Shown: positions 60,884-64,000 of the stretch, one piece after another | How the letters are laid out: each line of letters opens with the position of its first letter | Numbering within the stretch: the stretch's first letter is position 1 | Assembly (NCBI GenBank): GCA_965645245.1 | Contig: OZ287069.1 | Location: 1,302,001 to 1,366,000, forward strand | Origin: Massalongia carnosa | Lineage: Eukaryota | Length of the DNA: 64,000 bases | Reading direction: 5' to 3' | The notes under the pieces: generated by a model | Seen by the model: only the letters and a program-made list of their open reading frames with translations | Databases searched by the model: none | What the model was told of the DNA's origin: nothing | Translations under genes and position numbers: made by a program

Positions 60884-61340
60884 GTTCATAAATATCCTCA
60901 TTGGGATGATGCTACTTTAGAACAGCTGATTCGAGAGGGCTGGGACCGTATTTCTCAGGAATTCATTAATAAACGAGTTCGATCAATGCCTGATCGATTG
61001 AGAGCCGTCATTGATAGTCATGGAGCATTAACGGGGTATTAAATATAAATAAATGAAGCAATTTGATTATTTTTGATGTGTTTTTGGTGAGGTTCTCCGG
61101 TGGGTTTACTGTCGCTTGCAAAAGGGTCTGCGCGGACCCTGAAATGGCCACGACACCTCAAAATTTAGCGAAAATAACGACCAACCAGCCAAACTTCCCT
61201 CACCGTCTATGTGATAACTATGCATTGTCACCTGCTCTAGTACTGAAATTCGTAGCTGTAGAAAATAGTCACTGCCATCCCCAGCTCCTTCGCCTTTGCC
61301 CGCTCTATTTTTCGTCAAATTCTCCCCCCTATTCTTCGAC

Positions 61341-63411
61341 ATGAAACTAAGAGGTCCTCGCTCAAAACGAGCGAATACCGGGCCTCCAAATGCCTCGACA
61401 GAGCCTGTAAAGGCAAAGATAAAACTGACCTTGGCGGGGCCGAAGGGCAATGATGCTGTCGACGACGATGATCCCATATCGACGCCAACCTCAGCTCCGA
61501 AGGCATCTCGCAGGCAAAAGATCGTTCCCAAGACAAAGCCCCCCCCCAAGCAAAGTCTTCCAAAGCAAAGCCTCCCAAAGCAAAGCCTCCCAAAGCAAAG
61601 CCCCTCCCATTATCAAGCCCAGGCCGCCTCCCGGCTCGAATTATTATCCATCCCTAATGGTCCCGGATGACGAAGATGATACAATTGACTCGGAGAATGA
61701 CGTAGATGTAGAAAGTGTCGAGGGGAATGTCGAGGAGATTGCCGAGGGGGATTTTGAGAAAGAAGTCGAGAGTGCTGAGGAGAATGTTTTCGTTTCTGCT
61801 GCAAAGAAGATTGTCAAAAATGCCACTACTGGAGGGCCAAAGTCAAATCCACGTACCAAGACCAAGAAGACGCCCTCGTCAGACTCGCCCATTGTCATCA
61901 CCTACCTGCTGAATGTGACGGTGATGTTTGAAAAGGATGTCGTTCATCAGATGTCCAGTACTCGAAAAGTTAACTCGGAATCGGAATTCGAAAAGAGATT
62001 CTTTTTCAGACCTCATCTCAATGAGATGAGTTTAAAGGCTCAACGTCATGCAGATGACAAAACTTTTGCTTGTCGACTAGCCAATGTCAAAGCCACTGTT
62101 GCATGGAATGGCATCAAACCTCAAGAACGTATGTCTCTGATGTTGGAAGAGTCTTGGCTTCCAATTGAAGAAGTCTTGATTTTCCGATATGAGAATGGAG
62201 CAAAAAGTTTGGCCGTCGATCTAATCTATCAATTCGCTCGGACCAAAAGCGGTGAAATTCCAGAAGATCCGACTGCTGCCGTTTCCAAAAAGTTGGGAAC
62301 GGCCACCTTGAAATTGCAGAAGGAGTTGGAGGAGAGGGCCATTCTTCATGGTCAGACAGTTGAAAGAATGACGGCTCTACAATCTATGCATGTCTGTAAG
62401 AAGAAGACATGTGAGAATTTCGGCCGATACTGTTGGAACGATGAAGAAAGAGATCAACATTACATTATCAGCAGTCATCAGTTCGTGGCTTGGAATAAGG
62501 CATTGGATGATGACGTTTCGGGAGTCACTTCTCAGATGCCTCCATCGACTATCAGGGAAAGTATGTATTCGCAAAAAGGTAAAAGGAAGACTGCATCATC
62601 GACTCCGAAACAGGAAAGTCAGGAAGATTCGACCAGACATTTGCATCCCATCTATCAGAATCCCGCGTATCAATTCTTCCCCCCCTGAGCATTTGCTCCC
62701 CCCTCGACGTTTGTCAACCCCTCAGCATTTGCCAACCCCTCGGCATTTATTCCTTCTTCACCACTTCCCCAGCTTCATTCGTCCCAGTCTCCTTCTTATT
62801 CTCCTTCTTAAGCTTCCGACTTCGGACGTCATCGAGACGAAACGCCTGTGGATCGAAGAGATCGTCAAGGAAGTTATGCCCCCTCCGTCGTCGCCCCTCC
62901 CGCCGCTCCGAGCAGTCCGGTAGAGGAAGATTTGGAAGACTATGTCAATTGGCATATCCAATTCAAACCTCATCTGAAAGGCGTACTGAGGCATGCGTAC
63001 GATCGACTGATGGAAGGTGGGTACGATTTAATGACTATCCAGACATTAAAGGGTATTGAGCATCTGTCCTTCTGGTCGAAGCTGAGTATTCCTCCCGGTA
63101 TCGGAATTCAGCTGGCACGAGATGTCAGCAAATTTGGAAGACAGATGCAGATGCAAATGCCTCCGCCTTCCTCTCGGCGAATGCCTCCGCCCCCGTCTCG
63201 GCAAATGTCTCGACGTCCACGTTACCTGCCAACTTCGCAAATGACCACTCAGGCCAATACTCAGGTCATAAAAGAGGTGGATGAGGAAGAGGTGGATGAG
63301 ACACTAGGGGAGATAAAAAGGGTTGATCCGAGAATGGAAGATGCCATTGAGGAGGATGAGTTGGAAAATACGTATAATCTAGAATACGACTATGCCGAAG
63401 AAGAATATTAG
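61341..63411 (+). pseudogene. Transposon cargo gene, about 690 codons reconstructed, unknown function
   Basis: ORFs 61450-62688 and 62848-63411 share a frame, split by TGA at 62686 and TAA at 62809; N-terminal PKQSL repeats joined by an inferred frameshift near 61600; C-x4-C-x6-C-x8-H motif; GIGIQLARDVSKF; acidic tail. Confidence 0.75.
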
Positions 63412-63462
63412 ATTAGATTTCGAAATGAGACAGACAAGATGTCTGCAGACAGCAATCTAGAT

Positions 63463-63980
63463 CTAGATCTGAATAGTGGGATACTGAATACCGGCCATTC
63501 TAAATAAATTTCCCGGGTCTCCCATTCGACTTCTTTCTTTGACTGCATCCCGAAGAAATTGCCCGAACCCTCTATACACCTCGGTATATGAGAGACTCAT
63601 CTCTCTATTTCGACGAATCCATGCTTTCAGCAATGCAAACGACGTCTCAATTGGATTGAAATCCGGAGAATAAGGAGGTAGTCTTGCCAAGGTGACGTTG
63701 GCAGCCTCACACATCTGAATGAGATCGTCATTCCAATGAATTCGAGCATTATCTAACACTAAAACAGATCTAGGACCTCCGTCGGCAGTGCAATGAGGAA
63801 GGACGTGATTTAGAACAAAAGCATTGAAGATCAATGCTGTTATGGAGCCCTGATGCACCTCCCAAGCTATATATCTATAGACCGTAAATGCAGGAAGAAT
63901 GCTCCATCTCTTTGACCTTCTCAAATCCTGAACCATGGTCGCAGGAACACCGGCCAGTGCCCAGCTGTATCGACAATCAC
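63463..63980 (-). CDS. DD34E transposase, last exon
   Basis: RWSILPAFT, LVLDNARIH, LPPYSPDFNPIETSF (34 residues between D and E); acceptor AG at 63981-63982 before G-DCRYSW. Confidence 0.9.
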
Positions 63981-64000
63981 CTATATATGAGATGAGAAGA

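Follow-up and report, generated by a model that had tools for sequence, protein, structure and literature searches.

We report that the right-hand end of the window, the whole 64,000-nt stretch of Massalongia carnosa DNA analyzed here, most likely holds a decayed copy of a Tc1/IS630 (DD34E) cut-and-paste transposon of the autonomous type, one that inserts at TA and carries two convergent genes. This element, here called e1, starts at position 61109 and pairs a transposase gene with an accessory gene of about 690 codons; a diverged sister element, e2, lies some 10 kb upstream. We consider it probable that the accessory gene is inherited as part of the element. An earlier note on this DNA had proposed such a heritable module rather than a one-off capture, and the proposal is supported by the gene remnants in e2, the matching sequencing depth of both genes, a deep protein family and two pairs of contigs of equal size. 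Judging from its sequence and predicted structure, there is an even chance that the accessory protein is an element-encoded transposition helper, long carried by this lineage of elements.

The left edge of e1 is marked by the target dinucleotide TA (61107-61108). It is followed by the left terminal region (61109-61340, plus strand), which starts with CTGTCGCTTGCAAAAGGG and aligns with both ends of e2, in agreement with the resemblance previously noted between the terminus at 61109 and the e2 end at 51258. The same region presumably serves as the leader of the accessory gene and contains its promoter; no internal or subterminal repeats were found within 61109-61340. The accessory gene itself (61341-63411, plus strand) extends from the ATG at 61341 to the TAG stop at 63409-63411, and its frames, when read through, total the 690 codons of the earlier count. 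The motifs that had been picked out by eye are likewise present, namely, the Cys/His stretch (62389-62460), the PSAFAN repeat, and the GIGIQLARDVSKF stretch. Between the stop codons of the two genes lies an unstranded spacer (63412-63462), which is 51 nt long, as described before. Beyond it, on the minus strand, the window contains the C-terminal 178 codons of the transposase gene (63463-64000; stop at 63463-63465). Their product matches Pfam family DDE_3 (PF13358; E value of 5.9e-23), and, by both the sequence reading and the alignment, its second catalytic D and its E are separated by 34 residues; in the best transposase relative, P0168, the alignment shows a near-invariant D234 and an invariant E269. 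As far as the second D and E are concerned, the DD34E label given to the transposase earlier holds; the N-terminus and first catalytic D lie past base 64000, outside the window. An estimate that allows for this missing part puts the full size of e1 at about 3.6 to 3.8 kb.

The sister element e2 (51258-53831; 51256-53833 with both flanking TA dinucleotides) has both of its ends and is located inside a gypsy-type reverse transcriptase gene. Its ends start with CACCCGTTTGCAAAATGG and align with the left end of e1, 10 kb downstream; they are flanked by TA at 51256-51257 and 53832-53833, and the inverted ends (51256-51417 and 53677-53833) are approximately 160 bp long and 90% alike, with the outer 62 nt being identical. 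When e2 and one TA are removed, the reverse transcriptase frame is open across the join. Two gene remnants are enclosed. The transposase gene (approximately 52640-53615, minus strand) is decayed, with stops, but still matches DDE_3 (E value of 5.9e-10) and, under the Pfam cutoff, HTH_32 (E value of 9.6e-07), and its product and the e1 transposase share 53% identity across 109 residues. The accessory-gene remnant (51483-52255, plus strand) starts at 51483 with a stop-ridden part that encodes PKQP repeats and a KPRLRINPP motif, and it also keeps the last part of a domain resembling a sterile alpha motif (SAM) domain (GIGIRLARDVSKF), i.e., the last ~60 codons, plus an acidic tail. This C-terminal remnant aligns over 57 residues with 53% identity (tblastn), and the family profile matches e2 at positions 210 to 291 only (E value of 7e-19); the beta-grasp and Cys/His parts are missing. 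Consequently, the earlier statement that the sister keeps the same gene stands with respect to position but not with respect to the whole gene, of which only the stop-ridden N-terminus and the C-terminal end with its acidic tail are left. Three 22-nt tandem units, two of them identical, were observed at the expected 3' end of the e2 transposase gene (52580-52671).

Since both gene remnants are found in e2, the accessory gene belongs inside the inverted ends and predates the split between the e1 and e2 lineages. It holds the same position and orientation in both elements, with its ATG located 232 nt from the element end in e1 and 225 nt from the element end in e2; the ATG of the e2 transposase gene lies ~216 nt inside its own end. 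The features of the Tc1 family are there, i.e., DDE_3, a D-to-E spacing of 34, the TA duplication, and inverted ends, the last two being complete in e2. Because a second gene of ~690 codons breaks the single-gene feature, however, e1 is a variant of Tc1 and not a typical member.

We compared positions 61000-64000 with Logan contigs from four public runs (X1 to X4, representing two coded organisms and two studies). Contigs that match e1 from 61107 onward carry differing upstream letters (3, 3, 2, and 2 + 1 contigs in X1 to X4, respectively; agreement of ~0.6), and copies of the flanking repeat without e1 continue past 61109 (two contigs each in X1 to X3; agreement of 0.98). In X1, depth was 1114 for the body of the accessory gene, 1085 to 1097 for the transposase gene, and 1219 for the contig bridging both gene ends (63272-63565), compared with 149 for the contig over the window copy's own junction (61068-61134); the corresponding values in X3 were 3057 for the gene body and 422 for the junction contig. 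In both of these runs, the spacer is bridged by one contig, 63272-63565, at the depth of the gene bodies. The ratios between gene body and junction point to about seven copies, with both genes traveling together, a rough figure in that single-contig depths were used and summed contig depths do not equal copy numbers. Additionally, intact 584-residue predictions of the accessory protein are encoded on three distinct megabase contigs and shorter versions on three more, and a second subfamily of the protein, 55 to 62% identical, is found on further contigs.

These depths also bear on the idea that the two genes represent two different elements, adjacent or nested by chance. The right end of e1 falls outside the window, and nested insertions abound in the window, both of which would leave room for such a coincidence. 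Nevertheless, we find it hardly conceivable, given the near-equal depth across both genes and the contig that bridges them, the presence of both remnants within a single inverted-repeat pair with TA on either side in e2, and the resemblance of the e1 end on the accessory side to the ends of e2.

The terminal and internal parts of e1 showed some further variation in the public runs. Over the left terminal stretch (61101-61302), the summed contig depth in X1 reached ~5 times the value for the gene body, and two sequence variants, with depths of 1304 and 951, coexist at 61198-61263; the e1 terminus may be shared by numerous shorter derivatives or solo ends. One low-depth contig in X2 joins 61473 to 62452, skipping 978 bases, and possibly represents an internally deleted derivative of e1 without the beta-grasp region. 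Contigs from organism B diverge at 61885 and at 62452.

The window copy of the accessory gene is not intact: reading it through its 690 codons involves two frame changes and two stops. The frame changes are due to two one-base gaps, relative to the commonest form in the runs, in the C runs at 61539-61547 and 61601-61604. With one base restored behind 61538 and another behind 61600, the frame passes from 0 to 2 to 1 and leads from the ATG at 61341 through 61541-61600 into the long frame, for a total of 690 codons. The extra C was found at both gaps at all depth in X1, at the first gap at all depth and at the second gap at part of the depth in X3, and at both gaps at part of the depth in X2. The stops, a TGA (62686-62688) and a TAA (62809-62811), are private to this copy, with the G at 62688 and the C at 62809 accounting for all depth in X1, X3, and X4 and for nearly all depth in X2. 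These bases turn the TGA and TAA into Trp and Gln codons, as in the intact database proteins P0002, P0007, and P0008, and in the commonest form in the runs the accessory frame is open throughout. The repair anticipated in the earlier note, of two stops and one frameshift, was therefore correct for the stops and one short for the frame changes; similarly, the N-terminal PKQSL repeats that it had described exist in frame 0 of the window but are replaced by a KAKPP repeat once both bases are restored. The absence of these two bases could be genuine or could stem from assembly errors in the homopolymer runs. All three intact database predictions begin at a downstream Met, which is compatible with either explanation.

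Compared with the commonest contig, the window copy shows 22 differences (61291-63300), 20 of which are inside the gene; among the latter, 17 are nonsynonymous (including both stops) and 3 are synonymous. This comparison shows no constraint among copies. Repeat-induced point mutation was considered as the source of both stops but is not supported: the 22 changes are bidirectional and include 6 transversions, which argues for ordinary decay of a dead copy without a clear pattern of repeat-induced mutation.

Outside this genome, 27 longer relatives of the e1 transposase were found, all of them carrying PF13358. The best match, P0168 (333 residues, 58% identity), is encoded on an ENA contig of 4066 bp, and the fifth match, P0172 (369 residues, 51% identity), is encoded on one of 10484 bp. 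The same two contig sizes recur among the accessory homologues, with P0019 (771 residues) on a 4066-bp ENA contig and P0034 (806 residues) on a 10484-bp one. Genes of 771 and 333 codons on a contig of 4066 bp would leave ~750 bp for ends and spacer. These are two matches in size between 20 accessory clusters and 27 transposase relatives, for which ~0.2 would be expected by chance, as a rough estimate. Representatives of 8 of the 20 clusters are located on contigs of 3.3 to 4.6 kb, near the expected size of e1. No DNA loci of accessory relatives were found in metagenome, viral, or prokaryote genome contigs.

The accessory protein belongs to a family of its own. The window protein has no match in Pfam and neither do 149 relatives at an E value of ≤0.01 or ≤0.001; at an E value of ≤1, any one Pfam family is common to at most 2 of the 150 members, and nothing consistent emerges. 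A word-indexed protein search yielded only four close proteins, or six with an 18-member alignment, while a profile search of 1.84 billion representatives returned 179 clusters at an E value of ≤1e-3, 71 at ≤1e-10, and 10 at ≤1e-30. Among the best 150 of these 179, 19 members have 574 to 806 residues, and the others are fragments. In 18 long members, at ~22% identity, the invariant residues are Cys247, Cys252, Cys259, His268, Trp279, Pro295, and Ser-Ser-Pro419-421 (P0002 numbering); these members also retain a basic start, which includes an RLRLNGP-type motif, as well as an ...LGIxPGIGxQLA... stretch. Only two named records were met, both annotated as "hypothetical protein," from a metagenome-assembled genome of Brigantiaea leucoxantha (Lecanoromycetes) and from a Leptodophora isolate (Leotiomycetes), and they represent two classes of Pezizomycotina. 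Clusters of the family often comprise several members of differing sizes on several contigs and have the appearance of decaying repeats. One member, P0049, has an N-terminal match to DUF7924 (E value of 2e-20), which could reflect a fusion or a gene model misjoined with a neighboring repeat.

A structural model of P0002, built from 150 aligned sequences, has a predicted local distance difference test score (pLDDT) of >90 at residues 75 to 310 and 422 to 505, the remainder being predicted as disordered; an earlier model from nine sequences had a mean pLDDT of 38. The protein starts with a predicted disordered N-terminal part (61341-61893, plus strand; pLDDT of <50 where modeled), consisting of a K/R/P-rich start with a KIKLTLAGPKG motif (aligned with motifs of the RLRLNGP type in distant members), repeats of lysine and proline, and an acidic stretch. 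It is followed, on the same strand, by a predicted beta-grasp domain (61894-62238; residues 80 to 194, pLDDT of >90), a Cys-x4-Cys-x6-Cys-x8-His knuckle (62389-62574; residues 245 to 306), which is modeled as a pair of short strands plus helices, and an SSP motif leading into a SAM-like domain of five helices with a GIGIQLA motif (62911-63159; residues 419 to 501, pLDDT of >90). A comparison of the P0002-type and P0004-type subfamilies gave identities of 80% for the SAM-like domain, 61 to 65% for the remaining folded parts, and 52 to 55%, with many gaps, for the linkers.

In an all-against-representatives structure search, in which Z scores below 8 are common for unrelated folds, helical bundles included, the beta-grasp region (residues 80 to 194) gave middling matches to beta-grasp folds (Z scores of 6.0 to 6.6), such as streptokinase domain B (Z score of 6.6) and PB1 complex 4mjs (Z score of 6.4, root mean square deviation of 3.0 over 86 residues). 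Likewise, residues 420 to 501 matched the SAM domain of tankyrase (5jti; Z score of 6.3, root mean square deviation of 2.6 over 61 residues) and the N-terminal domain of RAD51C (8faz_C; Z score of 6.1, root mean square deviation of 2.0 over 57 residues), along with NusA, Sans, and SARM1. With Z scores of 5 to 6.3, all middling, SAM and helix-hairpin-helix (HhH) domains were matched equally. The predicted five-helix bundle resembles SAM and (HhH)2 domains alike, the latter as in the RAD51C N-terminus, and there is no match to either at the sequence level. The SAM resemblance suspected from the letters holds, at this middling strength, for the fold and not for Pfam, where SAM_1 appeared in 1 of 150 members, below threshold. 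Foldseek returned no match at an E value of ≤1e-3 against the PDB and a viral library; its best, and weak, matches were to the beta-grasp halves of bacterial superantigens (E values of ≥2.9e-3). A sequence search of solved structures with the accessory protein gave chance-level rows only. In the ESM Atlas, the whole protein was placed with unnamed fungal clusters (0.90 to 0.91), compared with 0.79 for a cluster named SAM, and residues 75 to 310 had no usable match.

Two sequence motifs add to this. The G-I-G-x-x-L-A stretch fits the HhH consensus, a lead toward putative binding of the DNA backbone rather than toward a classical SAM domain. The Cys3His region, with four conserved ligands at fixed spacing, is a candidate zinc-binding module; no match to a named zinc-finger family was found for it in Pfam with either the window protein or the family members.

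It could be argued that the accessory gene is a captured host gene, carried along as passive cargo without a role for the element. Such a role is an inference, e2 has lost most of the gene, and there is no constraint among copies; in addition, divergence is much faster in the accessory protein than in the transposase, as illustrated by the P0019/P0168 pair (24% versus 58% identity to e1). However, the invariant residues and three well-predicted folded modules persist across ~20% identity, members are typically fragmentary, multicopy, and located on element-sized contigs, no single-copy, host-like member was recognized among the 20 clusters looked up, and position and orientation have been kept in e1 and e2 despite only 53% identity between their transposases. 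On balance, we regard passive cargo as quite improbable.

Should the accessory protein indeed be a transposition helper, we speculate that it works as follows. Each gene would be transcribed inward from its own terminal region, and the lysine/arginine-rich start would carry the accessory protein into the nucleus. There, the HhH-type SAM-like domain and the Cys3His knuckle might bind DNA, with the beta-grasp (PB1-like) and SAM-like modules mediating self-association or holding the transposase. In this way, the protein could help to join the long element ends and the transposase, or it could pick the landing site. Copies without the gene, such as e2, would have been moved in trans or would be dead.

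The same structural evidence could be taken to indicate an element-borne anti-silencing or chromatin-directed factor that opposes the genome defense of the host rather than acting in transposition itself; it would bind the DNA or chromatin of the element and keep the element expressed, or it would steer insertion to repeat-rich regions. Self-associating modules of the PB1-like and SAM-like types are common in chromatin regulators, which counts in favor of this explanation, as does the location of both e1 and e2 inside other transposons, in a window that consists entirely of transposon remains and is partly AT rich. Then again, insertion into repeats says little in a repeat-only window, Pfam recognized no domain that reads histone or DNA marks in the window protein or the family members, and the differences between copies lack a clear one-directional C-to-T pattern of the kind that would suggest an active defense to be countered. 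An anti-silencing function is therefore possible but, in our view, rather unlikely.

Several observations weigh against a helper gene that is a maintained part of the element. The right end of e1 lies past base 64000, outside the window; the left TA was seen, and the left end is related to the ends of e2. The linkage of both genes outside this genome is one of equal contig sizes, not of sequence. Since the intact predictions start at a downstream Met, the first 105 codons may go unused in some copies, and in organism B further length differences (-1 and -14) in the repeat region would disrupt the long frame. The ratio of 17 nonsynonymous to 3 synonymous differences amounts to no constraint among copies, as expected of dead copies. 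e2 lost most of the gene and yet has 62 identical terminal bases, such that the gene may be dispensable in cis. Finally, the helper role is one that we infer throughout: Pfam gave no SAM, HhH, or PB1 signal (the single SAM_1 hit among 150 members had an E value of 0.0044, below threshold), and the structural matches are all middling, with Z scores below 8 and no Foldseek match at an E value of ≤1e-3.

In the remainder of the window, every long open frame tested between 1 and 64000 was transposon derived or had no family match, and no ordinary host gene was seen. The recognizable features comprise LINE-type endonuclease and reverse transcriptase (10595-12289 and 31984-32856), RNase H (4370-6568 and 9089-9886), gypsy-type reverse transcriptase and chromodomain integrase tail (14342-16957 and 24696-26204), a copia-type sequence (36650-38722), a Tc3-type helix-turn-helix (41278-41961), and a pogo/Fot-type DDE_1 (47338-47973). 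Bases 1001 to 13000 have a G+C content of 31 to 38%, whereas the segment at 58007-58666 has 54% G+C and several overlapping open frames on both strands, with arginine/proline/serine-rich translations. Immediately upstream of e1, a different decayed Tc1-like element is located on the plus strand (59261-61106); its frames look transposase-like by eye, and Pfam gave no match for the three pieces tested. The target TA of e1 lies in the last bases of this element, and e1-free copies of it are found in the public runs.

In textbooks, Tc1/mariner elements exemplify the transposon that requires nothing but its own transposase. Because that transposase suffices, these elements cross easily between species and are used as gene transfer tools. 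According to two publications (PMC4122938 and PMC7325037), ordinary Tc1-family elements encode a transposase only. The elements described here share with ordinary Tc1 (DD34E) elements the DDE_3 domain with its 34-residue spacing, the TA duplication, and the inverted ends; they differ in having a second, facing gene that is twice as large as the transposase gene, in their long ends (~160 bp in e2), and in a total size approximately twice the usual one. In the full-text literature searched, including passages of PMC7325037, PMC5751038, and 10.64898/2026.02.14.705750 but not supplements, Repbase, or Dfam, we found no two-gene Tc1 element from fungi and no description of the accessory protein family.

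Within the Tc1/mariner superfamily, the ciliate Tec and TBE elements have a DD34E transposase plus further open reading frames, one of them on the opposite strand, as described in PMC7325037. The extra open reading frames of Tec and TBE include a site-specific recombinase, none of which was found here by Pfam in the window protein or its family; moreover, Tec and TBE live in other hosts and are much larger than e1. We tentatively extend our interpretation, at a rather low level of confidence, to a whole branch of Tc1 elements in filamentous ascomycetes, which might be two-component systems that depend on an element-encoded, self-associating, DNA-binding protein (beta-grasp, Cys3His, and HhH/SAM-like) from a family without described relatives, either for complex assembly on the long ends or as a shield against genome defense. 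If true, the otherwise self-sufficient Tc1/mariner group would thereby gain its first obligate helper protein outside ciliates.

The layout of e1 is also reminiscent of maize MuDR, of the Mutator superfamily, in which a transposase gene (mudrA) and a helper gene (mudrB) are convergent, each starting inside a long inverted end; the mudrB product has no recognized domain and a narrow distribution, and the target duplication of MuDR is 9 bp. The transposase superfamily differs, the likeness lies in the convergent two-gene arrangement, and the comparison is one of layout only. In PIF/Harbinger and En/Spm (CACTA) elements, a second element-encoded DNA-binding protein, Myb/SANT-like or of the TnpA type, recruits the transposase or pairs the ends. 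Neither of these domain types was found by Pfam in the accessory protein or its family, but the division of labor in these elements is the model for the mechanism proposed here. A long-lived second gene of about 690 codons would mean either that the simplicity of Tc1/mariner elements is not universal or that this lineage has taken on an added task, such as end pairing, target choice, or escape from defense.

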